Origin: a virus | Length of the DNA: 64,000 nt | Direction: 5' to 3' (one strand) | Virus record (IMG/VR): IMGVR_UViG_3300019927_000017 | Coordinates: 1 to 64,000 of that record | Part shown: positions 7,708 through 54,494 of the stretch, piece by piece | Position numbering within the stretch: position 1 is the first letter of the stretch | How the letters are laid out: each line of letters starts with the position of its first letter | Made by a program: the position numbers and the translations under genes | Notes under the pieces: generated by a model | Database searches by the model: none | What the model was told of the DNA's origin: nothing | Seen by the model: the letters and a program-made list of their open reading frames with translations, nothing else

Positions 7708-7758
7708 CAGTACACCACAGCGACCTTATCGCTGTAAACAGGCGACGTTAACTATACT
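7708..7758 (+). repeat. leader repeat copy 1 (CAGTACACCxxAGCGACCTTATCGCTGTxAACA..AACTATACT)
   Basis: Near-identical copies at 31174 and 54438. This copy ends 5 nt before the terS ATG. Confidence 0.8.
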
Positions 7759-7762
7759 ACTC

Positions 7763-8542
7763 ATGGCGCTTGGCGAAGTAACCGGCGCAGATGAATCTGA
7801 AGTCGCCGAAATGGAGAAGGAGTATTTCTCCACTCCGCTGTACCAACAGCACGGTGTCCCGTTCGAGGTAGCATATTGCCTGAACGAAATCGGCAAGCAA
7901 CCCGAGGATTACGACGGCCCTGTTCGTTATTGTCAACGACGGGCCAAGAAGAAGGAAGACTACGACGGCCACCGCTTCGATAAGGCCGCCTACGGTTACT
8001 TCTGCCCGTTCCACGGCGGCGTGGGAGAGACAGGAGACGCGAGCAGACTTGACAACCCGCTGACGGCTGGCATCAAGCACGGCGCATACGCTGACGACGA
8101 ACATCTAAAAATGGACTTCAACGAAGAAGAGCAGAGCCTCTATGACTCTATCATGGAGGATTGGCCGGAAATCTACGACTGGCCCGACCGTTCGGAAGAC
8201 CCGGCACGATACCGGATTCTCCGACGTGTCGCTGTAAACGAAGTCCGCGCGATGCGCGAGGAAGACTATATTGACCAACACGAGGTCCATCAGGAACCCG
8301 TGTTTGACGAGCAGGGGGTCGAAGTCGGCCACAAGGAAGTCGAGAATCCGCTTTCGCGGGAGTACCGACTTCTGATGTCTGAGGTCACGAACCAGATGCG
8401 CGAACTGGGACTTACTCCCAAGGAGCGACAGAAGATGGACACGCTCGAATCTCAGGCAGACAAGGACGACAGCATCACTCGGGTCGCCGAAGACGCGCTC
8501 GACTCCGACGAGGAGTACGACCCGGAGCAGTTCGATGACTGA
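7763..8542 (+). CDS. terS: terminase small subunit (P27-like C-terminus)
   Basis: First gene of the structural operon, upstream of terL. ELGLTPKERQK motif as in P27-family small terminases. Confidence 0.6.
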   Translation: MALGEVTGADESEVAEMEKEYFSTPLYQQHGVPFEVAYCLNEIGKQPEDYDGPVRYCQRRAKKKEDYDGHRFDKAAYGYFCPFHGGVGETGDASRLDNPLTAGIKHGAYADDEHLKMDFNEEEQSLYDSIMEDWPEIYDWPDRSEDPARYRILRRVAVNEVRAMREEDYIDQHEVHQEPVFDEQGVEVGHKEVENPLSREYRLLMSEVTNQMRELGLTPKERQKMDTLESQADKDDSITRVAEDALDSDEEYDPEQFDD

Positions 8543-8798
8543 GCAGATAGTTACTGAACCCTTCTCCGCTGGCTACGAACTGGTTCACGGCGCTGAGGTT
8601 CACACGCTCAACGACGAGGAGGCCATCATGGACTTCGAGATGTTCAACTCTCTCGAAGCACAGTTCGGCGACCCGCTGGTCGGGTACGTCGGTGGCCTTC
8701 ACTATCACTTCAAGCCCGAGCGAGCGATTCCGCCGTCGGCAATCGCCGTTCCGGCTGACAACCACGACGACCCCGACACCCTACTGATTCAACGATGA
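8535..8798 (+). CDS. hypothetical protein (87 aa)
   Basis: ORF track, overlaps the terS stop. Confidence 0.55.
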   Translation: MTEQIVTEPFSAGYELVHGAEVHTLNDEEAIMDFEMFNSLEAQFGDPLVGYVGGLHYHFKPERAIPPSAIAVPADNHDDPDTLLIQR

Positions 8799-8887
8799 CA
8801 GACTTCGACATCACCGAAGACGGCAAACTCGTCAAGGACGAGGAGGAAGACGCCGACTTCGAGGAAAACCTAACTTTCGATGAGTGA
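8795..8887 (+). CDS. tiny acidic ORF (30 aa)
   Basis: ATGA coupling to the previous gene. Translation MTDFDITEDGKLVKDEEEDADFEENLTFDE. Confidence 0.25.
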   Translation: MTDFDITEDGKLVKDEEEDADFEENLTFDE

Positions 8888-8990
8888 CGCTGACACAGAC
8901 CTGACGCCTGAGTTCGTACTTGGACTTCAGGCGGGGCTGATGCTCTCGCAGGCTTCCTGCGAGCGCGACGACTGTCCTCGGGGTAACTGA
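8880..8990 (+). CDS. tiny ORF (36 aa)
   Basis: Its ATG overlaps the previous stop (ATGAGTGA). Translation MSDADTDLTPEFVLGLQAGL... Confidence 0.25.
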   Translation: MSDADTDLTPEFVLGLQAGLMLSQASCERDDCPRGN

Positions 8991-8998
8991 GTTCACGG

Positions 8999-9184
8999 AT
9001 GGACCACCCCGATAAGCCCGCCGCTTTCTCACGAGCGTCGGCTGGGGAGGTTCACCACGAGCCGGAGCAAGTCATTGCGGTCGTCGTGACCGACGAAGAT
9101 GACGACCCAGCTGGGGTCTTGGAGAAGTGGAGCGGAGACGGCTGGATTTACGCGCCAGCGGAAGACCTCGTAGAACTCAACTAA
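8999..9184 (+). CDS. hypothetical protein (61 aa)
   Basis: ORF track. Its TAA overlaps the terL ATG (TAATG). Confidence 0.5.
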   Translation: MDHPDKPAAFSRASAGEVHHEPEQVIAVVVTDEDDDPAGVLEKWSGDGWIYAPAEDLVELN

Positions 9185-10899
9185 TGGACGAAGAACTGGC
9201 TGAAACAATCGCCGAGTCCGAAGGCGGCCTCAACGACGAGGATGCACTTCGGGAACGGTGGGACGGTCGGCCAGACCTCTTCATCGAGGATGTTTTTCGT
9301 GTTCGTGACCTGAACACGAAGACGGTCGAAGACCTCGAACTGACCGGCTATCAGCGTCAGTTTATCCACGCGATGTGGTACGGGGACGCTTCGACGCTTT
9401 CTGTACTTAAGGGCCGACGAACGGGGTACTCGTTCGTGGCCTGCCTGACGATTTTGGCGTACTGCCTGTTGAATCCGCACAGTTTCGTTGCGATTACAGG
9501 GCCGTCGAAGTCTCAGGCGAAGGACCGGATTGATGACATCTACGACCTGCTGAAGTGGTCGAAACTCAATCTGACCCGAGAGGGATGTCCGACTGACAAC
9601 ACCGACGAAATCGAACTGCCGAACGGCGCGACGATGATGGCGTTCGCGGGCAACCCGGACACCTCGCGTGGTGCTGACTCGGCTGACATCCTCTTCATTG
9701 ACGAGATGGCGTTCCTCGAAGATGAACAGGAGTCGATGAACGCTTTCGGGCCGTTCACGGCCCTCGGTGACGCAAGCACGATTCAGATTTCGACGCCGAA
9801 CACCTCGAACGACCTCTTCATGCAGGACATGGAGAACGGGTCGCCGAAGGGCGATAACGGCATCATCGCCATCGAACAGCCGTCCTTCAAGAACGCCGAG
9901 GAAATCAACGTAGAGCGTTCCCTCATCGAGCAGGGCGTCGAACCGGCCAATCCATATCAGAATATGGAGGAAGCCGAGAAGGCCCGCCAGCGTGACCCCG
10001 AGGGGTTCAAGCAGGAGTACCTGTGCAAGACCGTCTCCGACCGCTATCGGTTCTTTACCGAGGAGGGCATCGACCGGGCGGTCGAGCGCGGTCGGGCTGA
10101 CGGTCACGTTCACCATCCCGCCACGCACGCACGACTCGGCGGCAAGATGGTGATGGGCGTGGACATCGCCGCTGGTGGGAAGGACGACACCGCGATTTCC
10201 GTCTTCGAACACTACGGGCAAGACCGCCTTCTCCGCTTCCACACGGTTCTGGACGAGGAAGACCTCGATAAGGTCGGTGTGGGTGGGAAGCCTGAGAATC
10301 CGTCTGACATGGCGGCCTACATCGACTTCCTCGCCGACAACATGGGAGTCGATAAAGTCTACCTCGACAAGACCGGGGTCGGCGAAGGCTTCAACAACGA
10401 AGTCAACAAGGTGCTGGGCCGTCGGGCCGAGGGCTTCGACTTCGACAACAAGGAGAAAATCGCGGAGATGATGGGCGACTTCAACTACGCCCTTCACAAC
10501 GACCTTGTTACCCTCGTGCCGGGCGACGACGGCCTTATCGCGGCTCAACTGAAGGCCATCGTCAAGGAGAAGAACCACCGAACTTCGAAGCCGAAGTTCT
10601 CCGGCAAGGACAACGCCCCGAACGGGAAGGACGACCTCGCAATGGCGCTCGTCCTCGGTGCGTACCCGCCGAACTTCGACGCTGACCGGAACACGACTCC
10701 TGTTCAGCGTGATAACGTCTCCGGCTACCAAGACGAAGAGCCTGATGTCACGGAAGGCTCTCGCGGTGACGGTTTCGAAGCGATGCTCGGGACGAACTCC
10801 GAGTCTCGCGGCGAAACGGATGGCGACGACCACGTAGCAATAGGCACACAACCAGACACGGGCCGTAGCAGGCGTTACAACTCACGACACTCTCGATAA
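9184..10899 (+). CDS. terL: terminase large subunit
   Basis: Walker A-like KGRRTGYS, Walker B ILFIDEMAF, ISTPN coupling motif, nuclease-domain GVDIAAGGKDDTAISV. Trimmed to the ATG at 9184. Confidence 0.9.
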   Translation: MDEELAETIAESEGGLNDEDALRERWDGRPDLFIEDVFRVRDLNTKTVEDLELTGYQRQFIHAMWYGDASTLSVLKGRRTGYSFVACLTILAYCLLNPHSFVAITGPSKSQAKDRIDDIYDLLKWSKLNLTREGCPTDNTDEIELPNGATMMAFAGNPDTSRGADSADILFIDEMAFLEDEQESMNAFGPFTALGDASTIQISTPNTSNDLFMQDMENGSPKGDNGIIAIEQPSFKNAEEINVERSLIEQGVEPANPYQNMEEAEKARQRDPEGFKQEYLCKTVSDRYRFFTEEGIDRAVERGRADGHVHHPATHARLGGKMVMGVDIAAGGKDDTAISVFEHYGQDRLLRFHTVLDEEDLDKVGVGGKPENPSDMAAYIDFLADNMGVDKVYLDKTGVGEGFNNEVNKVLGRRAEGFDFDNKEKIAEMMGDFNYALHNDLVTLVPGDDGLIAAQLKAIVKEKNHRTSKPKFSGKDNAPNGKDDLAMALVLGAYPPNFDADRNTTPVQRDNVSGYQDEEPDVTEGSRGDGFEAMLGTNSESRGETDGDDHVAIGTQPDTGRSRRYNSRHSR

Positions 10900-12452
10900 T
10901 GGCTGAATCCGAACAGAACTTCGTAGCGCCCGACCCTCCCGATGGGGACAATGCAGATTTCTATACCGATTCCCAAAAGGGGGTTATTCGGAGCGACACG
11001 GGCGGCGGAAGTTCCGTCGGCGGCGAACGGGCGGCGTCTGCGCCTGAAGCCACCATAGACGAGCATCGTGACATAGCCTACACCGACCCTCACGTCAAGG
11101 AGGGTCTGATGACCCTCATCGACTGGATTGTCGGTGACGGCTTCAACCTCGCTCCCCGGAGTTACGAGACTCCGATGGAGTCCGGCATCTCGGACGAAGG
11201 AGAGGCGGCAGGAGACGCCGCAGACGCCGCCCAGCCGGACACAGATGTTTCCGAGGGCAATCCCTCGTCCGAAGGTCAGGAGACGACAGTCCAACGGCTG
11301 AGTCGGCTTCTCGAAACGTCTAACTTCTGGACGGTGTTCGTGGACTGGGTTCGCTATGCGGCCATCGACGGACACGCTTTCATGGAACTCGTGGTCGAGG
11401 AGGGGCAGTTCAAGCCCAAACTTCTCCCCACGAAGCGCATGGAGCGGAAGGAAGACAAGTTCGGCAATCTGAAGTTCTACCGACTTCAGACGCCGGAAGG
11501 CGGTACTTCCGGTGGTAGTGGTGGTACTGGTTCTAATGGAATCAAGTACGCACCTCACGAGGTCGCCGAACTGACGTTCCAGAAGCACCCGACCGACGAC
11601 TTCGGGCGCTCTCTTATCGAACCCATCGCGGAGCAGGCCGATATGCTCCGTGACATGGAAATCGACTACGCCCGCTTCATCGCTACGAAGGCGTATCCTC
11701 CGATTCTCTGGAAACTGGGCGATGAAGACCACAACTGGACCGAAGACCAAGTTCAGGCGTGGATGGACAACGTTCAGTCGATTGAGCCTGACACGATGCT
11801 CGCGGCTCCGCACGACGTGGAGACGGACATCGTAGGCACGACCTCGACCTCCTCGACGGCTGGGGCGATGCGGCTCGAAGAGACGTTCGAACACTTCGAG
11901 AACCGCGTCGTCACCGGCCTTGGCGTTCCGCGTGTCCTGATGAACATGGACATTGGCGGGCAGGGCGAGACGACGGCGACGATGCCGTCCTTCAAGCGTC
12001 GTGTTGACCGGCTCCAGAATCGCGTGAAGTCTGCGGTGGAGTCGCAAATCATCATGTCTCTCCTGACGGAGAGCGCCGGACTGGACACAGACCCCGGCGT
12101 CAACGTCCCCGAGTTCCAGTTCGGGGAACATAGTTCAGCCGAGAAACGCCTCGAACTGGACAAACTTCTCAACCTCTTCAACAACGGCCTGCTGACACCC
12201 GAAGCGTTCGCGGAGCGGGCTGGCATCGACCCCGATGAAGTTCCGGCGTTCTGGAACGAAGGCGAACATCTGGACAACCTTCGCGCCCTCTCTCAGTTGG
12301 GCGACGACATCCAGAACCCCGAGGGCGGCAGTCCGACCGACACCGAAGGCGGGGCTGAATCGGCTGGCGGTGAAGTCACTTCTCGACAAGACACCGGAGC
12401 CGATTCGAGCAACGGCAGGAACAAGAAATCTGTCACGGAGGATGAGGGCTGA
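10899..12452 (+). CDS. portal protein
   Basis: 517 aa directly after terL, acidic C-terminus. Called on synteny and size. Confidence 0.8.
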   Translation: MAESEQNFVAPDPPDGDNADFYTDSQKGVIRSDTGGGSSVGGERAASAPEATIDEHRDIAYTDPHVKEGLMTLIDWIVGDGFNLAPRSYETPMESGISDEGEAAGDAADAAQPDTDVSEGNPSSEGQETTVQRLSRLLETSNFWTVFVDWVRYAAIDGHAFMELVVEEGQFKPKLLPTKRMERKEDKFGNLKFYRLQTPEGGTSGGSGGTGSNGIKYAPHEVAELTFQKHPTDDFGRSLIEPIAEQADMLRDMEIDYARFIATKAYPPILWKLGDEDHNWTEDQVQAWMDNVQSIEPDTMLAAPHDVETDIVGTTSTSSTAGAMRLEETFEHFENRVVTGLGVPRVLMNMDIGGQGETTATMPSFKRRVDRLQNRVKSAVESQIIMSLLTESAGLDTDPGVNVPEFQFGEHSSAEKRLELDKLLNLFNNGLLTPEAFAERAGIDPDEVPAFWNEGEHLDNLRALSQLGDDIQNPEGGSPTDTEGGAESAGGEVTSRQDTGADSSNGRNKKSVTEDEG

Positions 12453-25391: not shown

Positions 25392-27125
25392 ATGACACTT
25401 AACGACGGACGACTGGAAGAGAAGACCGCCGAGGCCATCCTCGATGCGATGGTGGCCGACGCGAAGGACTACTGGGACGAGGAACTGAACGACACCTCGC
25501 TGAACGTCATCCGGCGATTCTACCGTCCCATCGCCGAGCGTCTTGCCGAGGCTCAGTCCGACATCGGGCTGGTTCTCGACTCTACGCAAATCGACTACGC
25601 CAGCGACACGGCCCTTGACCTCCTCTGCGCCCTTATCGGTGTCAGCCGCGATAAGGCCGGTCCCGCGACTGGGTACGTTACCTTCAGCCGAACGACGCCT
25701 GCCGAGTCCACCTACATCGCTGGAGCAGGCACGACCGTTCAGACGAGCGGTTCACAGCCGACGAGGTACGAGACTACGAAGTCGGCCACGCTTCGCCTGT
25801 ACGACAACTTCTCTGATGGTGACATCATCGAATATGACGGCGACAAGACCGGCTTCGGCGTGCAGTCTACGACCGTTCTTGAAGGCGACAACTCGCTGGA
25901 GGGGCCAGCCACCGCTGGCGTCGGCATCTACAACACGAACTGGACGGTTCGTCACGGCACGGACTTCAGGTTCTACACGCAGGTCGAGAACAACGCAATC
26001 TCGATTACTGAGTTCGCCTACCGGAACGCCGACAACAAGTATCAGGTCGTCGTAGACCAGAACTCTGGCCGCGTTGCGCTGGAAGTTCTGGAGGGTGGCG
26101 CGAACACGGTCGTCGCAGAAGACACCGGAGCGGCTGTTCCGAAAAACCAGCGCGTGAAGGTGAAGGTCAGTTGGGAGCGGAGTGGTGACTTCACCCTCTA
26201 CTTCCTCGACGGCAACGATGACCAGTTCGCCTACCTGACGGGCTACGACACCACCCACACGGAGGGTGGCATTGGCTTCACGAGCGGTGACGCCAACGGT
26301 GCGAAATACTGGGACTACTTCACGGCCACGGCGGTCGATGCTCCAGTCGAGGCTGTCGAAAACGGCCCCGACTCGAACACCGCGCCGAACACCATCGAGA
26401 CGATGCCCGACCCGCCGGGCGGCATCGAGAACGTCACGAACAAGAACGAAGTCGATGGTGGCAACCGTGAAGAGAACGACGAGGAACTGCGCGAGCGGGC
26501 GAAGGTCGAACTGTCGCAGGGGTCGCGGGCTTCCGTCCCCGCCCTTTTCGGCGCGGTCAGTTCGGTCGAGGGCGTCACCTCGGTCAGCGTTTTCAAGATA
26601 AACGTTGACAGCAACGAAACCACCGACGGCTTCGAAATCGTCGCTGAAGGCGGCGACTCGCAAGACATCGCCGACGCCATCTTCGAAACGATGGCCGCTG
26701 GTGACACGTCCTTCGGTGGGAAGAACGGCACGGCTGACTCCGCTCCGTCTGAACTCGATAACGGGCAGACGTTCTCGGTCGATTTCTCCCGACCGGAGCC
26801 GATTCAGATTTACGTTGACGCCGACCTGACTGTTGCTGACAGTTTCGATGGGAAAGACGCGGTGCGAGACTCTATCATCGACCACATCGGCGGCATCTTC
26901 ACGACCGGCAACGAGTCGCAGGGCCTCGGCGCTGGCGACGATGTTGTCTACGGAGAAATCGAGTACCAGATTCGGGACGTGGAAGGTGTGTATGACGTGT
27001 CCAACCTGACGGTTGACACCGACAGCACGCCGACCGCGACCTCGAACATCGCCATTGCCGACAACCAAGTCGCAACGTCCGACGGCGTGGACGGTTCGCT
27101 GACCTTCGAGACAACGCCGAAGTGA
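25392..27125 (+). CDS. baseplate J-like protein
   Basis: 577 aa. The EENDEELRERAK segment is typical of the Baseplate_J family. Synteny supports the call. Confidence 0.75.
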   Translation: MTLNDGRLEEKTAEAILDAMVADAKDYWDEELNDTSLNVIRRFYRPIAERLAEAQSDIGLVLDSTQIDYASDTALDLLCALIGVSRDKAGPATGYVTFSRTTPAESTYIAGAGTTVQTSGSQPTRYETTKSATLRLYDNFSDGDIIEYDGDKTGFGVQSTTVLEGDNSLEGPATAGVGIYNTNWTVRHGTDFRFYTQVENNAISITEFAYRNADNKYQVVVDQNSGRVALEVLEGGANTVVAEDTGAAVPKNQRVKVKVSWERSGDFTLYFLDGNDDQFAYLTGYDTTHTEGGIGFTSGDANGAKYWDYFTATAVDAPVEAVENGPDSNTAPNTIETMPDPPGGIENVTNKNEVDGGNREENDEELRERAKVELSQGSRASVPALFGAVSSVEGVTSVSVFKINVDSNETTDGFEIVAEGGDSQDIADAIFETMAAGDTSFGGKNGTADSAPSELDNGQTFSVDFSRPEPIQIYVDADLTVADSFDGKDAVRDSIIDHIGGIFTTGNESQGLGAGDDVVYGEIEYQIRDVEGVYDVSNLTVDTDSTPTATSNIAIADNQVATSDGVDGSLTFETTPK

Positions 27126-31101: not shown

Positions 31102-31160
31102 CCCCCAGCAGGGACAGAGACTCAATGTCTCTATCCCCGCTGGGGGTCTTTTTTATTTTT
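31102..31160 (+). terminator. late-operon terminator: roughly 20-bp imperfect hairpin followed by a T-rich run
   Basis: CCCCCAGCAGGGACAGAGAC-tcaat-GTCTCTATCCCCGCTGGGGG, then TCTTTTTTATTTTTAT. Confidence 0.75.
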
Positions 31161-31173
31161 ATAACCGCTGTTA

Positions 31174-31228
31174 CAGCAGTACACCAACAGCGACCTTATC
31201 GCTGTTAACAAGAAGGTAAAACTATACT
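31174..31228 (+). repeat. leader repeat copy 2
   Basis: CAGCAGTACACCAACAGCGACCTTATCGCTGTTAACA...AAACTATACT. Confidence 0.8.
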
Positions 31229-31374
31229 GACGGCCATTACTGCTACCCCGGCTCCTATCCTGACTTCCATCGCCTAAGTCAGGTTTGGCACGCAACCACC
31301 CTGCTGATGGTCGCTTCCGTTGAGATGGGAACTACTGGTTAGAAGAGTAGAGTCGCGGCAGGTTAAGTCTTACG

Positions 31375-31593
31375 TTACTGGTGCGGGCCTCGGATGGCCC
31401 AGTCAGGTATCTGGCCTATCTTGTCCACGTAGAAGAGATAGACCCATGGCAGGACGAACAGGATGATTAGACACCACACGGCCAACAGCGATAAGCCCGC
31501 GAGGGTGTTGCCGAAGTAGGCGTAGACCGCGATTAGTATGCTGACGATGCTACCGACTCGGAACGCGAAGTCGTATGCTCTTCTGTCTTCCAT
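31375..31593 (-). CDS. two-TM membrane protein (72 aa)
   Basis: Hydrophobic helices IVSILIAVYAYF and LSLLAVWCLIILFVLPWVYLF. Confidence 0.6.
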   Translation of the reverse strand: MEDRRAYDFAFRVGSIVSILIAVYAYFGNTLAGLSLLAVWCLIILFVLPWVYLFYVDKIGQIPDWAIRGPHQ

Positions 31594-31655: not shown

Positions 31656-31801
31656 GGGCAGTTAGCCAAACTGGTAAAGGCGGCCCGGATTAAACCGGGC
31701 TTTGCCGGGTCAGGGAGAGCCGATGATGGAGGACAATTAGAAGCCTCTTTCAGACAGTCCCCGTATGATTCGGCTTCCGGGTTCGAATCCCGGCCTGCTC
31801 G
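31656..31801 (+). tRNA. tRNA-like gene with a roughly 70-nt internal insertion (intron?); isotype unresolved
   Basis: 5' GGGCAGT-TA-GCCAAACTGGTAAAGGC (class II-like D arm). 3' CCGGG-TTCGAAT-CCCGG T arm plus CCTGCTC, which pairs 6/7 with the 5' end. I could not fold a canonical anticodon arm. Confidence 0.45.
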
Positions 31802-32116: not shown

Positions 32117-32576
32117 CTACGTCACCCACCGTGACAGTAGACTCGATGACTCTGAGCGGCATCGGCGGGTTGATGGTGACGGTCACGTCAACGATGCTGG
32201 CGGTGTGGGAGACTTTGATGTCGTAGTCCATCTCCCGAACGTCTTCCTTCGTGAACTGGTGGTCTTCGTGAGCGTGGTCGTTGACGATGGGGGTTGCTTC
32301 GGTGTAAAGGCAGTCACCCTCCCACGAGTGGTTCTCGGGGTCAACTGCTCGCTTGATTTTCTGTCGTTCGTACTCCGTGTTCGGAACCAGCTCGGTTCTG
32401 ACTTTCTGGTTGTATTCGTGGAGTTTCTGACAGCACTCACACGCCGATGGAGCGACCGTCTCGCCGCCGTGCATCTCGGGCTGGCAGTCGTCGTCAGTCG
32501 CGGCGGCTGTCCCCAACCCAGCGGCGGCGAGGACGCTGGAGATTGCGCTCGCAAGGAAGTCTCGTCTCTCCATCAC
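32109..32576 (-). CDS. Tat-signal secreted protein, Cys/His-rich
   Basis: N-terminus MMERRDFLASAISSVLAAAGLGTAAA is a twin-arginine signal. Overlaps the rtcB stop. Confidence 0.65.
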   Translation of the reverse strand: MMERRDFLASAISSVLAAAGLGTAAATDDDCQPEMHGGETVAPSACECCQKLHEYNQKVRTELVPNTEYERQKIKRAVDPENHSWEGDCLYTEATPIVNDHAHEDHQFTKEDVREMDYDIKVSHTASIVDVTVTINPPMPLRVIESTVTVGDVDG

Positions 32577-33958
32577 TCGGCTTTGAGGTTCAGCACAGGC
32601 TTGATTTGGTCAACGACCTCGGCGGTCGGGGTGATGGCGTCTTCGATAAGGTCGGCGGGCTTGTACGCCATCGGCGCTTCGTCCAGAGTTTCGCCGTTGA
32701 CTGAAGACGACTCCACGTCGGCCATCGTCTCCTTGAAGTCCTGCACGTCCAGTTCATCGAACGCTTGGGTTCGGGACATCACCCGGCCAGCACCGTGTGG
32801 AGCCGACTGGTTCCAGTCGTCGTTGCCTTTGCCACGAACCAGAAGCGTGCCGTCCCTCATGTTGAAGGGGACTACGGCGATTTCATCTTCGGCGGCGCGG
32901 GTCGCTCCCTTTCTGATGGTCATGTCTTCGAAGTCGATGAAGTTGTGGACGGCTTCGATGGGAGTCTTCGGGATGGCTCCGACGACCTCGGCGACCTTGG
33001 ACATCATGAGTTTCCGCGACTGAGAGGCGTACATCTGCGCGAAAATCATGTCCACATAATACTGGTGGGCTTCTTCGCCCTCCAGATAGGCGAGGTCATC
33101 ATCGAACTCCTGCACGGCGTTGCTTCGGGCCGTGCTGATGATGTCGAAGACCTGACCGATTTGCTTGCCTTCGAAGTCGGCGCGAATCTTCTCGGCATGA
33201 GGCTCCAACTTCGCGTTGGCGTACTCTTGGTAGCCCTCGGGAAGTCGGTCTTGGTCGAACATCTCGGCGCTTCGAAGGTCGGACGCCCGTTCCTGATGGT
33301 GCTGGGCTACGTTCAGTCCGAGGCCCCGACTCCCGCTGTGGATGACAGCCCACAGTCCGGTCTTATCGCTGTGGCCCAGTTCGATGAAGTGATTGCCGCC
33401 GCCGAGTGTCCCGATGGAGTTGATGGCCCGAGTCATGTCGTAGCCAACTCGGTCGCACAGGTCTTTCAGGTAGTCGAGGTCGTATCCTTTGCCGTGGACT
33501 GACGTGCTGTGAAGGACTCCGTACTCCCGTTCGAAGTCAACGAGTTTCTTGCTCGCTTCGTTCCACGGGAAGTCGTTGCCGATGTGGTACTCCTGCTCGG
33601 AGTGACCGTCGTCGCCGTAGACCTTGAACCCCATCGGAACCTTATCGCGGATTTCCTCGTCCCACAGTTGCAGGGTCTTCCGGTCGTAGTCCACGTTCCC
33701 GAAGTTCACCGCGTACATCCCACAGCCGATGTCCACGCCGATGGTGTTGGGGACGACTCGGTTTCCGAGAGGCATCGTGAAGCCGATGACTGCACCGGAG
33801 CCGACGTGCGTGTCGGGCATGATAGCCACGTCGTTCTCGAACGCTTCGTGGTCTATCATCGTCTGAATCTGGTCGATGACGCCATCTTCCAGTTCGTCTT
33901 CGGGAAGCATTACTTCTGCATCGGTACTTGCGCCGCTGATTGTAGTTGTGTCTGTCAT
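32573..33958 (-). CDS. rtcB: RNA 3'-phosphate/5'-OH ligase RtcB
   Basis: Motifs DTHVGSGAVIG, GGGNHFIE, HSGSRGLG, VHNFIDF and SAPHGAGR. Trimmed to the ATG at 33958. Confidence 0.92.
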   Translation of the reverse strand: MTDTTTISGASTDAEVMLPEDELEDGVIDQIQTMIDHEAFENDVAIMPDTHVGSGAVIGFTMPLGNRVVPNTIGVDIGCGMYAVNFGNVDYDRKTLQLWDEEIRDKVPMGFKVYGDDGHSEQEYHIGNDFPWNEASKKLVDFEREYGVLHSTSVHGKGYDLDYLKDLCDRVGYDMTRAINSIGTLGGGNHFIELGHSDKTGLWAVIHSGSRGLGLNVAQHHQERASDLRSAEMFDQDRLPEGYQEYANAKLEPHAEKIRADFEGKQIGQVFDIISTARSNAVQEFDDDLAYLEGEEAHQYYVDMIFAQMYASQSRKLMMSKVAEVVGAIPKTPIEAVHNFIDFEDMTIRKGATRAAEDEIAVVPFNMRDGTLLVRGKGNDDWNQSAPHGAGRVMSRTQAFDELDVQDFKETMADVESSSVNGETLDEAPMAYKPADLIEDAITPTAEVVDQIKPVLNLKAE

Positions 33959-35125: not shown

Positions 35126-37843
35126 CTACATGAACGCCTCCAGCCCGCTCTGGCTCTGCGTCTTCCCGGCGAGAGCCGCCTGCGTCTCCACGCCGAAGGC
35201 GTCGAGGATGTCTTCCATCGGATTGGCGAGACACTTCCGTTGCATCTCGCTGGCGTCAATCTTCAGGTCGATGTCTTCGAGGTCGTAGGCATCTTCGTAG
35301 GCGATGACATCTACTCCTTCGCCCCTGACCGTCTGTCCGGGTTTCACCTTCGCTCGCTTCGGCTTGTCTCCCTTGGCGAACTCCACATCGAGAAGGTGGT
35401 TGGCGAACCACGCCGCCCGTGGCGCTTCACCTCGTGGATGGTCGCCGGTCGTAGACCACGAGTAGTTGTCGTCGCCGTCCGGGTTGTCAGGGTCTATCTT
35501 CTGGCCGAGGCCCTGTGGGATGCCGAGATTGTCCCAGTCGGGGTCAGCCGGGTCGATGGAAGACGCGGCGTCGTGGACTGTCTTCACCACGGCGTCCTTA
35601 TCGGCTCCACGAACGATTTGTTCCAGAACCTCTTCCTGCGTCTCCTTCGTCAGCATCGAGAAGTTCGACTTCACGCAGGGATAGCCTGTCACGTCGAACT
35701 TGCCCTTGCCGTCCTTGACTTTCTCGTCAAGGTCGTCGCCCTCGTCCCACATCTTGAGGTAGGCGTAGTTCTTCTTCGAACCGGACATGAAGAACCGCTT
35801 GGCCCGCATCTCCACCTCAATCTCCCAGCGGTTGTGTTCTCTCGGGATGTTGAACTCGTCGCACAGCACCGGGTAGACCTGCGACTCCAGTTCAGCACAC
35901 AGTTTTTCAGCGTAAGCCAGCGTGTACTCCTGACTCCAATTTGTCGGGAACTCGACATAGTTGCTGTCGGTGTCCCCGTAGACCACTTCAGCCCCCTCTG
36001 CCGCGTTCTGGCTGATGTACTCGGACGTGGCCTTGATGACGCGCTGGCCGGTGAGGGTGATAGCCGCCGCGTCCTTCGGATTGTAGAGCGGTGAACGCGC
36101 CCATCCCGAGTATCCGTAGAACGAGTTGTAGATGGTCTTCGTGACGTTGTACGCTTCAGCGTACTCGTCCCACAGGTCGGTTCCGTACTCGGCGGAGTTC
36201 CGTTGCGCCTTGAACTCCGCTTTCACCTCGTGGTACTCGTCCACAAGTTCTCGGATGATACCGTCGTGGTCGGTACGGAACATCTGGCCGTTGGCGGCCT
36301 CGACGTACTGGCCGTCAATCTCGTCTTTCAGTTCGTACCACTCGACCGTCCCCTTCTCAACCTCAATCCGGGTGTCCGGTGAGGCGTTGAGCATCCATTG
36401 GGTCATGGGGTAGAGGGACGCAAGGTCAACCCCGCAGACGTTGTACTTCACGCCGGAGAACGCTTCCTCGACGTGAGCGCCTTCGTAGTTCACCTCGTCG
36501 TTGTTGTTCGAGTTGGCGACCGCCGGGTTGTCCCACGCCGTTATCATGGCGAGGTCGTGTTCAGCACACTTCCGCCGGACGGACATCTCGATGTACTCGT
36601 TGTTCTGGTGGGTACGCCGCCAGTCCACACCCACCATGTCTTTCAGCCGCTTCTTGAAGCCGAGAACATTCTCTGCCTCATTGACACCCACGGTCAACCG
36701 GGTGTCTTTTACGTTGTAGTTCACGAACTTCACCGGGTCGTCCCGGTACATCTCGAAGTAGCCCTGCTCCTGATGCTCTATCTTCGTCTCGTCCAGAGCG
36801 TCGGCGGCTACGTCGTCCAGTTTGAACGAGCGCGGCTCGGTGAACTTCGTGTCACCCCAGCCGTCCATCAGGTCGTAGAGCGCACGGCCTGTGATGCTCG
36901 GCTTGAAGTCGTCGCCTCGGTCGTCCACCTCTACCTCTCGCTCTCGGGAGAGGCGCTGTGGTGACGCTCCGACCGACTTCATCCGCTCGATGATGTGCGG
37001 GAGGTCGAAGCCGTCTTTCTTCGAGTCGCCGGAGTTCCACCCAACGATGATGTCGGGGTTCTTGTCCTGAATCCACGACCCGAAGGCAATGAGCATCCGC
37101 CGTTCGGATGGCTCGAAGTTGAGGCTGTCCGGCTCGGTCAAGCCGATGTCTGACAGCGATAAGTCGCCATCGGCCATCTTCGCCCGCTCCACCGCCGAGA
37201 GGTCGAAGAAGTCTTCGAACGACTCGCCGTCCACGTCGAGGAAGACTTCGTACTCTTCGTCGTAGGAGTCGTGGACGGCGATGGAGAGGATGCGGGCCTC
37301 TCCGGGGTCGGGGAAGCCAGCGCCCCGGTCGTCCGTCTCGATGTCCAGCGTGACAACTCTCGGCTCCACGTCGGTCATCTTCACCGGCTCCAGTTCATCG
37401 TGGTCAACGATGATGTGTTCACCGCGCCGGGTGTCCGTGGGAACTCGAACTCCCGTTCGGATGTCTTCGTCAATCCGAAGCCGCTCGGTGAAGAGACAGT
37501 CTGCGCCCCACGTCTTCTCGAACTCGTCGCGGAGATTCCGAATCGAGTGTGGGTACTCCGTGACGACCTTCACGAGGTCGGTGGGGTTGGCATCGAACCG
37601 CTCCGACAGCGGGTCGATGTCTACCTCTTGGTACTCGATAAGGTCTTCGTAGTCAGCCTCGGCGACCTTATCGGCGTCAGTACGTCGGGTGAGGAAGTAC
37701 GGCGGGAAGCCTCGAACGCTGACCGTCCGGGGTTCATGTTCCGCCGTTCTGCCGTACAGCCGGACGATGACTGAATCGAAGTCAGTATCGCCGGGGTACA
37801 GCGTCTCCGTCGTGGTGATGTAGAGTTCTTCGTGTTCAGTCAT
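35126..37843 (-). CDS. polB: family B DNA polymerase
   Basis: Exo I VVTLDIETDD, motif A DLASLYPM, motif B KTIYNSFYGY, motif C YGDTDS. Confidence 0.97.
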   Translation of the reverse strand: MTEHEELYITTTETLYPGDTDFDSVIVRLYGRTAEHEPRTVSVRGFPPYFLTRRTDADKVAEADYEDLIEYQEVDIDPLSERFDANPTDLVKVVTEYPHSIRNLRDEFEKTWGADCLFTERLRIDEDIRTGVRVPTDTRRGEHIIVDHDELEPVKMTDVEPRVVTLDIETDDRGAGFPDPGEARILSIAVHDSYDEEYEVFLDVDGESFEDFFDLSAVERAKMADGDLSLSDIGLTEPDSLNFEPSERRMLIAFGSWIQDKNPDIIVGWNSGDSKKDGFDLPHIIERMKSVGASPQRLSREREVEVDDRGDDFKPSITGRALYDLMDGWGDTKFTEPRSFKLDDVAADALDETKIEHQEQGYFEMYRDDPVKFVNYNVKDTRLTVGVNEAENVLGFKKRLKDMVGVDWRRTHQNNEYIEMSVRRKCAEHDLAMITAWDNPAVANSNNNDEVNYEGAHVEEAFSGVKYNVCGVDLASLYPMTQWMLNASPDTRIEVEKGTVEWYELKDEIDGQYVEAANGQMFRTDHDGIIRELVDEYHEVKAEFKAQRNSAEYGTDLWDEYAEAYNVTKTIYNSFYGYSGWARSPLYNPKDAAAITLTGQRVIKATSEYISQNAAEGAEVVYGDTDSNYVEFPTNWSQEYTLAYAEKLCAELESQVYPVLCDEFNIPREHNRWEIEVEMRAKRFFMSGSKKNYAYLKMWDEGDDLDEKVKDGKGKFDVTGYPCVKSNFSMLTKETQEEVLEQIVRGADKDAVVKTVHDAASSIDPADPDWDNLGIPQGLGQKIDPDNPDGDDNYSWSTTGDHPRGEAPRAAWFANHLLDVEFAKGDKPKRAKVKPGQTVRGEGVDVIAYEDAYDLEDIDLKIDASEMQRKCLANPMEDILDAFGVETQAALAGKTQSQSGLEAFM

Positions 37844-44467: not shown

Positions 44468-44492
44468 GACTTAAGTCTGCCGGACTTGAGTC
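44468..44492 (-). promoter_or_regulatory. paired palindromes GACTTAAGTC / GACTTGAGTC upstream of a TTTAGTA TATA-like box
   Basis: Two 10-mers 5 nt apart. TATA-like element about 26 nt before the ATG at 44425. Confidence 0.5.
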
Positions 44493-50496: not shown

Positions 50497-50607
50497 GACT
50501 GCTCCGCAGGGAAGTTTACGCAGGCCCGCCCATCCGCGTGGGGAGCCTAATGGTCGGGAAGCCGGGGAACCGGACTGCTGGGTACGACCCCCGTGCCCCG
50601 TAGCAGG

Positions 50608-51286: not shown

Positions 51287-51361
51287 TTTGAGGTTATGTC
51301 TCGCCGTTGGCGTCGTTGTGGTGAGGCGTCTCCGACCCGCAACGCCAGCAGGGTCGGCCCA

Positions 51362-51437
51362 TAGTCCCGGTGAGATTCGAACTCACGGTAACTCCGGTTC
51401 CAAAGACCGGCGCTTTTGGCCGCTTTGCTACGAGACT
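51362..51437 (-). tRNA. tRNA-Gln (anticodon UUG)
   Basis: AGTCTCG/CGGGACT acceptor stem with A discriminator, as in archaeal tRNA-Gln. Anticodon arm CCGGT-CTTTGGA-ACCGG. T arm GTGAG-TTCGAAT-CTCAC. Weak D stem and long variable loop. Confidence 0.7.
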
Positions 51438-51823
51438 AACTGCTTTTCAAGTTCACATTTTTCAATGCTACTATACTTCCGCCGCAACTCTGTTTTTGGA
51501 GCGTCTTTTTTCCATAACCAGTACACAGAGTCGGAATACTGGTCGTATAGAGCAAAGGCGTCAACGTCTTCATCAGAGTATTCTTCATCTCTGTTGTCGC
51601 CGGTAGCCCGGCGAATTTGACGCTGAAGATTTGCTCGGAACGTGTCGTCTCTCGACCCGTCCTTGTAGCCTCGCTTGACCTGAACCTTCACGAGGTCGCC
51701 CTCGATGTCGGCAATTAGGTCGTAGCGGTCTTCAAGAACCGGCTTCGAGACATTGAAGCCGAGTTCAAGAAGATTGGTTGCTACTATCTGTTCTGCTATC
51801 TCGCCGTTACGATTAGTGTCCAT
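51428..51823 (-). CDS. PD-(D/E)XK-type endonuclease-like protein
   Basis: GEIAEQIVATNLLELGF...RYDLIADIEGDLVKVQVK pattern. Trimmed to the ATG at 51823. Its last codons overlap the 5' end of tRNA-Gln. Confidence 0.55.
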   Translation of the reverse strand: MDTNRNGEIAEQIVATNLLELGFNVSKPVLEDRYDLIADIEGDLVKVQVKRGYKDGSRDDTFRANLQRQIRRATGDNRDEEYSDEDVDAFALYDQYSDSVYWLWKKDAPKTELRRKYSSIEKCELEKQLVS

Positions 51824-52256
51824 CTTCTTGAACTCCTTAAGGTAGCGTAGTACCTGATTCCCCCTATGACGTGGGGAGTCCACGGCGGGTTGTGAAGCCC
51901 ATACAGACCGTGGTGGATGCAATGTCGAACGAGTATGTTTCATCGCCCTCAACAACGACGCTTCATAATCTTCCTCCGGTCGGGGTTTTCATGGTAAGTA
52001 ATGTTATGTAACTACTGGCAATTTCTGGCAGTTCAACCCTATAAGCGGCGCGACTCTTATCGCCCCTAACCCCGCTGTCAGTCGCCCGGTCTACCGGACG
52101 GCCCACCTACACGGGTGCTTCGGTTAGGACTCAGTTCTATGGTTTTTCATCTTCCAATAGTTCGTTTTACGTCAGCCTCAAGGGGCTGGCATCCCGGTTG
52201 GACAAGAGGCGACGGTCGAGAAGTCCCGAGGGTTTCAGCCAGCGGGCCTTCTCGAA

Positions 52257-52324
52257 TGGAAGCGTGTGGAATTGAACCACCATCAGCGGCTCTCCGGCCT
52301 ACTGTTCTCCAGATTATCGCTTCC
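52257..52324 (-). tRNA. degenerate tRNA-like element / pseudo-tRNA (68 nt)
   Basis: Perfect 7-bp acceptor stem GGAAGCG/CGCTTCC and a T arm with TTCAATT loop. No foldable anticodon arm. Confidence 0.3.
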
Positions 52325-52561
52325 TCAAGTGACGCTCACCACACGCCACAGTTATTTGTCGCTTGATTGCTACCATACCCTCTGCGGTGGTTGTCCTGTT
52401 AGGGAGCCTGCTACTGGTACGGATAACCTACACCGGGCGACCACTCCGGCTGTTTTAACTGGTGGATTTGACTGCTGTTTCCTACTGGTCGCGGATTCCG
52501 ACGCCCCCGACCGTCAAGGGTCAGGGTCACGTCGGCTCCACCGGGGCGACCGCCCGGCTCA

Positions 52562-52635
52562 AGCAGGAACGTGGACTCGAACCACGGACTTGCTACTTAC
52601 GAAGTAGCCACTCTTCCGAACTGAGTTATTCCTGC
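52562..52635 (-). tRNA. tRNA-Thr (anticodon CGU)
   Basis: Clean cloverleaf: GCAGGAA acceptor, ACTC/GAGT D stem, GCTAC-TTCGTAA-GTAGC anticodon arm, CGTGG-TTCGAGT-CCACG T arm. Confidence 0.85.
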
Positions 52636-52891
52636 ACGAAAAGGAGGCGACCAAACCTCCCGTGTTCCCAACCGAAGTGGCGGGACACAACCTTCCGAGG
52701 AGTCAACCTCGGGCCTGACAGTACAGTCCTGACTCCCTTAAGTTTTGAGAGTCACGGGGAGAAAAGCCCCGGTTTCGCTATGGACTGTAAAGGGTGAGCG
52801 GCCCTCGGGTTTTCCGACCCCGGAATGGGTAGTCGAGGATGGGCGGTAGCCAGCATCATCGACCTCCCTACTACACTAAAGACGGTACAAT

Positions 52892-52915
52892 GACTTAAGT
52901 CTGGCGATTCAAGTC
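52892..52915. promoter_or_regulatory. paired palindromes GACTTAAGTC / GATTCAAGTC
   Basis: Spaced by 4 nt, in the intergenic region upstream of 53042. Confidence 0.45.
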
Positions 52916-53041
52916 TTAGGTTGTGGCCGGGTGCTACCCCTTATTCACCACTTGAACCCCTCTACACACCGGAAAAATGCAGTTAACGATGACAAGGACT
53001 TAAGGGGGTTCGCTTCTTGTCTTTGAACATAGGTGAATAGC

Positions 53042-53626
53042 ATGGCTAAGAAGACCAGCACCAAAACTAAAAAGCATAAGAATAACGAGAAAACTGTCAA
53101 GTGTCCCGCCGAAGGATGTGAAAAGGAAGTTCTCGCTCGTGGATTACATCTCCACGTCAGAAGGAGTAGCGGGAACGGTCACGGTGAACAAAATGAGATT
53201 CCAGACGACCTCGACCTCGATAACGCAGAGGAAGTCGGAACGCGAGAGGTCGAAATGAATTACCCCGAAGAGCGGGAGTCGGAGCAAGTCGCCCGGCTCT
53301 GTCCGTACTGCGAGCGTCCCTACCGAGGGAAGCACGGCGTCATGATTCACCTCGGTCAGGTCGCCGGTCGGAAGAATCATCCAGAAGATGCGCCGGAACG
53401 TCACGAACCCGACGACTTCGCCATCGTCCACGTTGACGAGAACGAGAACGTGGTCGAGGTAGTCGAGGAGCCGACCTCGATGCCTTCGACCGAACGTCGT
53501 CAGGAGCAGGAGGCCGAGGGCGGCTCTCTTGACGCTGACGAGGTTCGTGAATACATCGACGGCCTTCGGGAGCAAGGACTCGAAGAAGAGGCAGAGAGAG
53601 CCGAGCAGATGCTACTGAGCGATTGA
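53042..53626 (+). CDS. zinc-finger protein with basic N-terminus and acidic C-terminus
   Basis: CPAEGCEKEVLARGLHLHV and CPYCERPYRGKHGVMIHL (C2H2-like). ATG at 53042. Confidence 0.65.
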   Translation: MAKKTSTKTKKHKNNEKTVKCPAEGCEKEVLARGLHLHVRRSSGNGHGEQNEIPDDLDLDNAEEVGTREVEMNYPEERESEQVARLCPYCERPYRGKHGVMIHLGQVAGRKNHPEDAPERHEPDDFAIVHVDENENVVEVVEEPTSMPSTERRQEQEAEGGSLDADEVREYIDGLREQGLEEEAERAEQMLLSD

Positions 53627-54157
53627 CCACTCGTCTTCGAAGTACGACTGAGTGTATTTGAGTTCTGTTCCTCGGCGGTTGTCTTCTCGAATCATGTCAG
53701 CGAACTCCATCAGTTCGTAGAATCCCTCTTTGTTCCGGTGGAGTCCATCCTCCAGCCGAGGGACTATCTGTTCGAGCATGATGACGACCGGCTCGTACTT
53801 CGTCACGAGGTACGGAACCATCGGTTCGAGGAACCGCCGGATGCTGTCGGGGTTCTTGATGTGTAGTTCGTAACTTTGGCTGTCTCTGTCGGGGCCGTGG
53901 GACTTCTCGGAGATGCTGGTTCTGACTCCCAGTTCGTCGCAGTACGCCATCAGTTTCCCCATGATGGGGTCGCTGTCGTCCATCGGTCGGATGATTCTGA
54001 CGACTGCTTGGTACTGGTAGCCGATGCTGTACTTGTCGTTCTTCGAGACGTGGACAGTCACCGTGCCTACTGCATCGAGGACTCCGGCGAGGTGTGCTAT
54101 CTCGTTTTCTTCCACATCGGGGTTATCTTCGCCCCGAGGTTGTAGTTGTTGTGCCAT
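53612..54157 (-). CDS. LAGLIDADG-family homing endonuclease (single-motif)
   Basis: IAHLAGVLDAVGTVTV motif near the N-terminus. About 180 aa, free-standing. Its 3' end overlaps the convergent gene by 15 nt. Confidence 0.65.
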   Translation of the reverse strand: MAQQLQPRGEDNPDVEENEIAHLAGVLDAVGTVTVHVSKNDKYSIGYQYQAVVRIIRPMDDSDPIMGKLMAYCDELGVRTSISEKSHGPDRDSQSYELHIKNPDSIRRFLEPMVPYLVTKYEPVVIMLEQIVPRLEDGLHRNKEGFYELMEFADMIREDNRRGTELKYTQSYFEDEWSIAQ

Positions 54158-54314
54158 GCTTGTATGTCTCTTCTCGGAAGTCTTAAGTCATTGGGTCGTT
54201 TCTGTTCTGGTAAGTTCTCTCCGTAACGGAAGTCGTTGTCCACCGGGCATCGACGTGCTGGCTGTGGCGACAGGTCGAGGGTCGCCATGAAGGAACCGGG
54301 AGGCGGTAACGGTC

Positions 54315-54369
54315 GAGTCTGTAAGACTCAAGTCGGCAGATTTAAGTCCTTCGAGCGTCTTTAGTTTAA
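54315..54369 (+). promoter_or_regulatory. operator-promoter cassette (GAGTC..GACTCAAGTC..TTTAAGTCC then TTTAGTTTAA)
   Basis: About 40 nt nearly identical to the cassette at 44426-44497 on the opposite strand. Confidence 0.5.
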
Positions 54370-54437
54370 CGAGGGCAGGTTTCTCCTCGGATGTTCACTT
54401 CGGTAGTTCACCCTACGGGAGTAACAACTGTACTATA

Positions 54438-54494
54438 CAGCAGTACAACAAGCGACCTTATCGCTGTTAACATCACTTGTTTACTCTGTATAGT
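54438..54494 (+). repeat. leader repeat copy 3
   Basis: CAGCAGTACAACAAGCGACCTTATCGCTGTTAACA... flanked by the inverted repeat ACTATACAG/CTGTATAGT. Confidence 0.8.

Follow-up and report, generated by a model that had tools for sequence, protein, structure and literature searches.

The window, which comprises the first 64,000 nt of IMGVR_UViG_3300019927_000017, belongs to the 71-kb genome of a haloarchaeal tailed virus, a myovirus syntenic with HRTV-5 and HF2. Megablast against phage records gave no match, searches of prokaryote genomes with the portal protein and with tRNA-like 3′ ends yielded no match that would identify a host, and Rfam matches in the window were 2 tRNAs and nothing else. 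We compared this genome (G000) with the relatives G001–G004, G008, G009 and L005. Three copies of a repeat lie on its plus strand, all of them intergenic, at ~7700–7758, 31164–31228 and 54432–54494. A sequence-only reading of the window had located these copies correctly, although the similarity begins a few bases further upstream than it proposed, at ~7700, 31164 and 54432.

Copy 1 lies directly upstream of terS (7763–8542, plus strand), the small terminase gene by a weak Pfam Terminase_4 match and synteny with HRTV-5 gene 2, and the first gene of a ~23-kb morphogenesis operon. As had been claimed, the repeat stops just before this gene, 4–5 nt from the ATG at 7763; because all homologues begin with MA..E(V/I)TG (MA..E.TG is conserved in 14), this ATG is the true start. 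The plus-strand parts of copy 1 are CTTTAC (7700–7705), a CAGTACACCA box (7708–7717), a 17-mer (7719–7735) that contains the octamer CCTTATCG (7724–7731), a TATA-like TGTAAACA (7733–7740) and AACTATACT (7750–7758), and a near-identical ortholog is present in G004. Copy 2 directly follows the late-operon terminator, also as proposed; the terminator (31102–31162, plus strand) consists of a hairpin (31102–31146) and a T-run, and likewise reads as a hairpin and T-run on the minus strand. Copy 2 comprises ACCGCTGTTACAG, a CAGTACACCAAC box, the octamer (31194–31201), a palindromic TATA-like TGTTAACA (31203–31210) and AACTATACT (31220–31228), and a cassette after the late terminator is also found in G004, G001 and G003. 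A conserved non-coding stretch with covarying hairpins (31229–31392) begins at the start site predicted for copy 2. Its plus-strand fold reaches −31.5 kcal/mol with 6 compensatory pairs and its minus-strand fold −39.3 kcal/mol with 7; with a minus-strand fold at least as good, the stretch is no proof that copy 2 gives a plus-strand transcript.

Copy 3 occupies a divergent intergenic region 70–130 nt before the ATG at 54565, upstream of the 54.5-kb operon to which it had been assigned. This plus-strand unit of three genes (54565–56938) encodes a 161-aa protein without assigned function, an ERCC4-type nuclease (55050–55532) and a tyrosine integrase (55781–56938). The copy consists of ACTATACAG (54432–54440), a CAGTACAACA box, the octamer (54456–54463), TGTTAACA (54465–54472) and an inverted CTGTATAGT (54486–54494); the 9-bp inverted repeat described around it is thus real, formed by ACTATACAG upstream and the inverted CTGTATAGT downstream. 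Copies 1 and 3 therefore head plus-strand gene units, while the orientation of copy 2 is gene-less. A further word, GTTCACCCTGCGGG (7658–7671, plus strand), ~45 nt upstream of copy 1, returns upstream of copy 3 as GTTCACCCTACGGG (54406–54419); judged by sequence, the two are possibly a further operator.

The region common to the three copies spans ~40 nt at ~92% identity (copies 1 and 2, 92.5% over 40 nt, 7702–7740 versus 31171–31210; copies 2 and 3, 92.3% over 39 nt, 31172–31210 versus 54436–54472) and includes the 17-mer AGCGACCTTATCGCTGT, identical in all three, for which 0.16 chance matches are expected in the whole window at up to 3 mismatches. AACTATACT is exact and at the same offset in copies 1 and 2, and its direct orientation is absent from copy 3. 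Indels of 1–2 nt between copies exclude a common reading frame, and the repeat is a non-coding nucleic-acid element, as the sequence-only reading had it. A rearranged fourth copy lies beyond the window at genome position 69.3 kb (69324–69381); it matches copies 2 and 3 exactly over 20 nt and has ACTATAC upstream and a CAGTAGTACAACA box in inverted orientation. The flanking boxes are almost confined to cassettes: ACTATAC falls in cassettes in 5 of 7 cases and TGTTAACA occurs in copies 2 and 3 only. The exact 17-mer has 4 matches in IMG/VR, a collection in which it may match by chance; one of them is the relative G004. The sequence-only reading had made its case depend on persistence of the repeat in syntenic relatives. 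The full 55-nt cassette was found only in the nearest lineage, G004, which keeps it both before terS and after the late terminator, whereas more distant syntenic relatives keep only a bipartite core with their own octamer, as G002 and G003 do upstream of terS.

The octamer itself is dispersed on both strands across the genome, with 45 occurrences against ~5.5 expected under synonymous shuffling. Thirty-eight sites lie inside genes, 17 in sense and 21 in antisense orientation. Neighbouring sites tend to alternate in orientation (opposite in 31 of 44 neighbours, P ~0.003), and sites on each strand are spaced more evenly than at random (CV 0.56 and 0.40 versus 0.94); a series of ~2.0–2.4 kb gaps between sites was dropped as it is absent in G001. 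Relatives use one-base dialects of the word (CCTTCTCG, CCTCATCG, CCTCGATG and CCTCAATG), of which CCTCGATG belongs to the HF1/HF2/HRTV-5 group, and nearly all lineages and dialects examined place their own octamer 26–48 nt upstream of terS. The octamer is under DNA-level selection genome-wide, with lineage-specific variants, and is probably the site of a putative lineage-specific DNA-binding factor. Among the three roles first proposed for the repeat, a binding platform for a factor that recognises the 16-mer consequently fits best. The reader of the word was sought in several ways: Pfam, PHROGs and PDB sequence searches of conserved proteins without assigned function gave nothing useful, no protein in 8 genomes, TerS included, clusters by dialect, and literature searches for the octamer returned primer matches only.

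We consider it somewhat more probable than the alternatives taken together (roughly 55%) that the repeats represent a single virus-specific promoter cassette present three times. A cassette of this kind would be read by the host archaeal RNA polymerase and would comprise an upstream box, (Y)TWTAC-AGCAGTACAMCA; the octamer, inside the 17-mer, at ~−39 to −32, the usual position of a BRE; a TATA-like box, TGT(T/A)AACA, at ~−30 to −23, 2–3 nt past the octamer; and an AT patch, ACTATAC or its inverse, around −10. Starts are predicted at 7761–7763 for copy 1, ~31230 for copy 2 and ~54493 for copy 3, and because the first of these falls on the terS ATG, the late mRNA is predicted to be leaderless. 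A putative octamer-binding factor, most likely virus-encoded, would help or gate recruitment of TBP and TFB at the adjacent TATA box, which would place the late operon, an antisense transcript from copy 2 into the replication module and the nuclease/integrase unit under common control. From this arrangement we infer promoter activity, start sites and a factor, whose existence and identity, and whose action as activator or repressor, are likewise predictions. The factor would act through host components in this scheme; a virus-encoded TFB or RNA polymerase was rejected, as no TFIIB-family gene was found in 4 genomes and a large 928-aa protein carries GHKL-ATPase motifs without the DxDGD motif of RNA polymerases.

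Several observations are consistent with this layout. TGT(T/A)AACA is present in 3 of 3 copies, always following the octamer in the same orientation, and octamer-N2-3-T(T)WAAC(A) recurs in every lineage, each with its own octamer. From the start of the AT box to the terS ATG there are 28 nt in G000 (TAAACA), 29 nt in G002 and 30 nt in L005, a spacing that is canonical for leaderless haloarchaeal transcripts, the start site here being predicted. An AT patch lies at ~−16 to −5 upstream of terS in every lineage (six), with ACTATAC(T) or its inverse at ~−13 to −5 of the predicted start in 3 of 3 copies, as expected for the AT dinucleotides around −10/−11 of a haloarchaeal promoter-proximal element. 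Among 73 intergenic octamers from 8 genomes, an AT-rich hexamer starts at +9 to +14 in 42%, versus 23% for random intergenic positions, and occurs at +15 to +44 in ~50%, versus 31%; upstream of the same octamers there is no AT-box enrichment. This one-sidedness led us to reject a TATA box ~26 nt upstream with a start inside the octamer, and the TTAT of the octamer was rejected as a TATA box given that relatives have CCTTCTCG, CCTCATCG, CCTCGATG or CCTCAATG at that place. A BRE has a CGAAA-like consensus directly upstream of TATA; no such purine-rich element was found in copies 1–3, where (CC)TTATCG-CTG occupies its position. The BRE is weakly conserved in haloarchaea. Its mutation in HF2 IR4 had no effect (PMC8707807). 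The gene-less orientation of copy 2 is plausible because haloviruses, for example HF2 (PMC8707807) and HFTV1, are documented to have antisense and internal promoters.

Other observations count against a promoter. The distance from octamer to terS varies (26–48 nt), and in G008 and G009 the AT box lies 16–19 nt from the ATG, too near to drive terS. In HRTV-5 the class II late-promoter marker CCCTTTAC lies ~227 nt upstream of terS, so the octamer of that virus would be in the leader and not in the promoter. In 8 genomes, about half of the cassettes that combine octamer and AT box lack a gene on their strand within 300 nt. Most dispersed octamers lack an AT box on either side, and the AT profile around 444 sites in 9 genomes is flat; this does not support every dispersed octamer as a promoter and implies that the word has a role beyond promoters. 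Mutation of the BRE and alpha box in HF2 left promoter activity unchanged in a virus-free host (PMC8707807).

The simplest account, by analogy, is a promoter cassette like the intergenic repeats of HF2, an account that the sequence-only reading had missed. HF1 and HF2 (Haloferacalesvirus) carry promoters in class I repeats of 58 bp and class II repeats of 29 bp, as reporter assays and primer extension showed for HF2, in which TATA starts at −26 and the BRE spans −33 to −37 (PMC8707807). The two systems share virus group, genome layout, a length of ~55–58 bp, confinement of the repeats to intergenic regions, low copy number, location at the heads of transcription units including a long late operon, positions conserved among relatives, and an AT-rich TATA-like box between conserved blocks thought to bind viral regulators. 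They differ in having no sequence similarity: none of the HF2 words alpha (CTAAAGACTTAGAA), beta (TCTTTAAGTC), gamma (CGTCTNNTAGAG) and class II (CCCTTTAC) occurs in or next to the cassettes, loose GACTTAAGTC-type (alpha/beta) relatives being found in other intergenic regions and CCCTTTAC 3 times elsewhere in the genome. Moreover, the HF2 words are confined to the repeats, whereas here the core octamer is scattered ~45 times, mostly inside genes; the alpha, beta, gamma and class II words quoted in that study do not include CCTCGATG, the octamer of the HF2 group (PMC8707807); and promoter activity was measured for the HF2 repeats but is predicted for the cassettes. A second class of intergenic words, (T)AAGACTTAAGTC, is found at the heads of minus-strand units and resembles the class I alpha and beta words of HF2; together with the cassettes it would, on sequence resemblance, make two promoter classes, as in HF2.

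One may postulate an alternative scenario, tentative but possible, in which the octamer and a TTAAACA-like box form the site of a viral DNA-handling protein and the three cassettes are its strongest sites. Candidate binders are the small terminase, in a pac-like or autoregulatory role (compare the SPP1 pac region), or a replication, recombination or genome-organising factor. Such a site would suit an octamer kept before terS at distances some of which are incompatible with promoter geometry, its place downstream of the class II marker in HRTV-5, the alternating and evenly spaced sites on both strands, the lack of AT-box enrichment on either side of dispersed sites as a whole, and the half of cassettes that face no gene; TerS has a conserved, Cys/His-rich N-terminal region, and the virus encodes Mre11-like, PD-(D/E)XK, ERCC4 and HNH nucleases. 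A general binding site, however, has no need of an AT box enriched at intergenic octamers only and on one side only, which is what a promoter predicts. The alternating orientation disfavours a signal for a one-way packaging motor, known systems as a rule have one pac site, and the absence of any protein that groups by dialect extends to TerS.

The two remaining roles that had been proposed fare worse. Were the cassette a transcribed leader RNA acting in antitermination, processing or translational control, through ACAGCGA/UCGCUGU pairing or the long hairpin of copy 3, the very long transcripts of HF2 (PMC8707807) would profit from such processivity signals, and the terS-proximal octamer of the HF1/HF2 group probably does lie within a 5′ leader. 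Copies 1 and 2 can indeed form a 7–8 bp hairpin with a CCUUA loop and copy 3 a strong one (−21.8 kcal/mol, z −5.3), but the former has a z of only about −1.9 and is abolished in the best structure of copy 3, which leaves no fold common to the three. Flanks of the octamer show no pairing covariation at 45–60 sites per genome, those of G001 and G003 are not even complementary, and recognition of a hairpin or cruciform was rejected on this ground. Sense and antisense sites in genes are about equally frequent, read-through into copy 2 from upstream is unlikely behind a terminator, and the TATA-like box reading puts most of the cassette upstream of the start and so mostly outside the RNA; we regard a leader RNA as quite unlikely. 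Direct repeats that act as recombination hot-spots, bracketing the morphogenesis module (7.7–31.2 kb) and the integrase unit and promoting module exchange between related viruses, would account for copies at module boundaries in viruses that are evidently mosaic, given that octamer dialect and capsid-protein relatedness are discordant. Yet 40 bp is short for homologous exchange, breakpoints in the G000/G001 alignment do not fall specifically at cassettes, G001–G003 lack the integrase and still carry cassettes, and the conserved AT box and terS spacing go unexplained, which makes a hot-spot most improbable.

In the middle promoters of phage T4, a MotA box at −30 takes the place of the host −35 element; there, as proposed for the cassette, a virus word sits at the position of a host upstream element beside an ordinary core element and defines a temporal class read by host polymerase with a viral adaptor. 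The T4 system is nonetheless bacterial and relies on sigma appropriation, its coding DNA does not maintain regularly spaced MotA boxes on both strands, and our searches for a reader gave no adaptor candidate. The archaeal host activators Ptr2 and TFB-RF1 bind beside BRE/TATA at few sites each, and they resemble the cassette in a site that adjoins or overlaps the BRE upstream and in the proposed recruitment of TBP and TFB to a weak core promoter; the word here is instead genome-wide, and a BRE-overlapping site is equally typical of archaeal repressors. Chi, DNA uptake sequences and KOPS/SRS are cellular words, read by RecBCD/AddAB, ComP and FtsK/SpoIIIE, respectively, and usually with strand polarity. 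The octamer shares with them a non-palindromic 8-nt form, 8–20 fold over-representation, maintenance at synonymous sites, a spacing of ~1.2–1.6 kb and one-base dialects between lineages, and departs from them in its alternating orientation, an archaeal host without RecBCD and its position beside TATA-like boxes.

A broader and more speculative possibility, which we think doubtful at present, is that the octamer is the recognition word of a virus-encoded, lineage-specific system that marks both strands at regular intervals and defines a promoter class where it stands 2–3 bp before a TATA-like box. If true, this would be a viral promoter-specificity system in Archaea, whose viruses supposedly depend wholly on host initiation factors, and the five one-base dialects of HF1/HF2-like haloviruses would reflect co-evolution of reader and word. 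The intergenic repeats of HF2 are the sole tested case of expression timing in archaeal tailed viruses of this group and still lack an assigned regulator; the cassette would connect a promoter class with one particular DNA-binding activity that can be discovered. Since the HF1/HF2/HRTV-5 group carries CCTCGATG and has cultured members, the idea is testable in existing virus–host systems.

The viral record spans 71,444 bp and its ends overlap by ~100 nt; the window covers its first 64 kb. The large terminase shares 44% identity with its counterparts in Halorubrum and Haloarcula tailed viruses, and the gene order is that of HRTV-5 (Haloferacalesvirus, family Hafunaviridae): terS, terL, portal, capsid and tail genes occupy one strand, and RtcB, a family-B polymerase and a PD-(D/E)XK nuclease converge on them from the other. 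Judged from sequence, terminase identity and gene order together identify an uncultured haloarchaeal myovirus, such that its transcription signals should be read as archaeal (TATA, BRE) and not as bacterial. TTCGAA-containing words are strongly over-represented throughout the genome (CTTCGAAG, 42 copies; TCTTCGA, 126), whereas HF1-group genomes are reported to lack TTCGAA (PMC7230728); this contrast suggests another host or another restriction environment.

The sequence-only reading had described three plus-strand repeats of about 55 bp, and these proved to be real: copies 1 to 3, at ~7700–7758, 31164–31228 and 54432–54494, share the block TAC(A/C)GCAGTACA(C/A)CA..AGCGACCTTATCGCTGT(T/A)AACA with 92–95% identity, and all three are intergenic in our gene map. 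A 17-mer is exact in every copy, against a chance expectation of 0.16 matches at ≤3 mismatches. In copies 1 and 2 the common block is followed by 9–10 variable bases and then an exact AACTATACT, and the 9-bp inverted repeat said to enclose copy 3 was recovered as ACTATACAG upstream and its inverse CTGTATAGT downstream. A fourth, rearranged cassette lies outside the window at genome positions 69324–69381 (L035:6324–6381), with its parts in the order ACTATAC, GCGACCTTATCGCTGTTAAC, inverted CAGTAGTACAACA box. Its core matches exactly over 20 nt and is joined by TGTTAAC, and the cassette apparently runs antisense inside a 63-codon ORF whose translation is coupled to that of its neighbours. The word GTTCACCCT(G/A)CGGG, common to 7658–7671 and 54406–54419, ~45 nt upstream of copies 1 and 3, is possibly another operator.

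At the core of the 17-mer is an octamer, CCTTATCG, that occurs 45 times genome-wide, 26 times on the plus strand and 19 on the minus; 17 copies read in the sense direction of a gene, 21 run antisense to one and 7 are intergenic. Examples lie at 1523, 5109, 10266, 25631/25649, 37636/37666, 40588, 57629 and 62248. When synonymous codons were shuffled within genes, 5.5–5.7 genic copies were expected compared with 38 observed, and the 11-mer CGACCTTATCG occurred 14 times inside genes against 1.1 expected, indicating that selection on DNA, not on proteins, keeps the word. Neighbouring octamers alternate in strand more than chance predicts (31/44 pairs opposed, P ~0.003), and the intervals along each strand vary less than under random placement (CV 0.56 and 0.40 versus 0.94). 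Relative to the collinear virus G001 (~72% nucleotide identity), 7 of 16 alignable sites are kept in place and the others have turned over. Opposed pairs occur within genes at 25631–25656 (18 bp apart) and 37636–37673 (30 bp apart), the latter in the polymerase gene and kept in place in G001. Pairing covariation was not found in the octamer flanks, so what is conserved is not a hairpin; a leader-RNA structure shared by the copies, among the roles suggested earlier, was not supported.

Relatives (G001–G009, L036, other loci and the HF1/HF2/HRTV-5 group) carry either this word or a version of it in which a single base is exchanged. The form CCTTATCG is used by G001 (60 copies) and the partial genomes G004 (21) and G005 (16); CCTTCTCG by G002 (60) and G006 (12 in a 21-kb locus); CCTCATCG by G003 (43), G007 (32), G008 (47) and G009 (50); CCTCAATG by L066 (12) and L072 (15), loci of 18–20 kb; and CCTCGATG by the HF1/HF2/HRTV-5 group, with 63 copies in 50 kb of HRTV-5. 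All five genomes tested passed the synonymous-shuffle test. Dialect is at odds with capsid-protein relatedness, and across eight genomes no single protein clusters by it. The TTAT inside the CCTTATCG form was considered as a TATA box and ruled out because the dialect variants are not AT-rich.

When all 444 octamers from nine genomes were pooled, an AT-rich box was not enriched on either side, but it was at the 73 intergenic octamers of eight genomes, downstream only. An AT-rich hexamer is present at +9 to +14 from the octamer start for 42% of intergenic octamers versus 23% of random intergenic positions, and at +15 to +44 for ~50% versus ~31% of random positions; at −60 to −12 the values are 32–36% versus 28–33%. 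The bipartite core octamer-N2-3-T(T)WAAC(A) is present in every lineage, for example as ctgTAAACA and ctgTTAACA in the virus studied here, ctgTTAAACA in G002, gtTTTAACA in G003, atgTTAAACA in G006, agTTTAAAC in G008 and ggTTACAAC in G009. Several lineages embed it in their own 50–70-nt intergenic repeat families (in G001, CTGAACGTTAAC...octamer; in G009, a longer repeat in four or five copies), from which we conclude that the cassette is the local version of a family-wide element.

Nearly all lineages have their own form of the word ahead of the terS start codon. The distance from octamer start to ATG is 26 nt in G009, 27 in G008, 32 in G003, 34 in the HF1/HF2/HRTV-5 group, 37 in G001 and 38 in L076 (one mismatch each), 39 in the present virus, 40 in G002, 44 in L072 and 48 in G004; the close relative G007 (locus L048) has no octamer upstream of terS. 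Given an octamer density of ~1 per 3 kb per orientation, this recurrence cannot be chance. In the present virus, G002 and L005, the AT box that follows the octamer begins 28–30 nt before the ATG, with an AT patch at ~−10; HF2 promoters have TATA from −26 and BRE at −33 to −37 (PMC8707807), and by this analogy the spacing is that of a canonical leaderless haloarchaeal promoter. In G008 and G009 the box is 16–19 nt from the ATG, too close, and in HRTV-5 the class II intergenic-repeat marker word CCCTTTAC lies ~227 nt further upstream, so the terS-proximal word is not everywhere the terS promoter.

The closest tested precedent for the cassette is the set of HF2 intergenic repeats, all nine of which drove a bgaH reporter in Haloferax volcanii, with start sites mapped, and for which virus-encoded factors binding the conserved repeat blocks were proposed (PMC8707807). 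We put the probability that the repeat is a promoter cassette at slightly above one half (about 0.55), a reading built only on geometry and analogy. Under it, the octamer at the BRE position would be a factor site, TGT(T/A)AACA the TATA box and ACTATAC a proximal AT element, with transcription predicted to start at 7761–7763, ~31230 and ~54493. A second word class, (T)AAGACTTAAGTC and near variants, occurs only between genes, where it heads minus-strand gene units, often as a pair (39511, 44468–44492, 50403, 52892, 54180, 54325–54348 and 61900; genome 68741). The class is similar to the alpha and beta words found in the class I promoter repeats of HF2; two promoter classes, one heading the late operon, would parallel HF2.

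Copy 2 immediately follows the late terminator and is directed into the converging replication module, an arrangement also present in G001, G003 and G004. As a promoter it would yield an antisense or non-coding transcript, and such transcripts are documented in HF2 (PMC8707807) and HFTV1. The ~160 nt that follow copy 2 (31229–31392), located between the late terminator and the point where the converging operon ends, form a conserved non-coding stretch with covarying hairpins, for example CCTGACTT...AAGTCAGG versus CCCCTCTT...AAGAGGGG in G001. Folding of the minus strand is at least as good as that of the plus, so the hairpins do not fix the direction of a transcript; the stretch is a candidate small RNA or 3′ UTR of one strand or the other. 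On the same strand as copy 2 and 430 nt downstream is a tRNA-like gene interrupted by a long insertion (31656–31801), near the minus-strand RtcB ligase gene (32573–33910); ARAGORN did not call it, and its 3′ end has no exact match in prokaryote genomes.

The main rival reading is that the cassette is no promoter but a platform to which a DNA-handling protein binds: the small terminase, for instance, or a factor of replication, recombination or genome organisation. The alternating orientation of the octamers and their even per-strand spacing point to some genome-wide process, half of the cassettes combining octamer and AT box face no gene within 300 nt (eight genomes), and the octamer clearly has function at hundreds of non-promoter sites. 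That the cassettes serve as recombination sites, as also suggested earlier, found no specific support. Searches for a reader yielded no viral TFB in four genomes. A 928-aa protein encoded outside the window on the minus strand (genome 65840–68626; L035:2840–5626) is conserved in all eight related genomes; it has no Pfam or PDB sequence match and, from its N-terminal motifs E..N, DNGIGM and GQFGVGS, resembles GHKL ATPases. The other conserved proteins gave no informative matches to protein families, PHROGs or the PDB, and none of these searches pointed to a reader of the octamer.

Intergenic promoter repeats are already known in this virus group. In the published accounts consulted we found no description of a cassette built around a lineage-specific octamer that is under selection throughout the genome, nor of the version belonging to the HF1/HF2/HRTV-5 group; that group, with its own dialect, includes cultured viruses.
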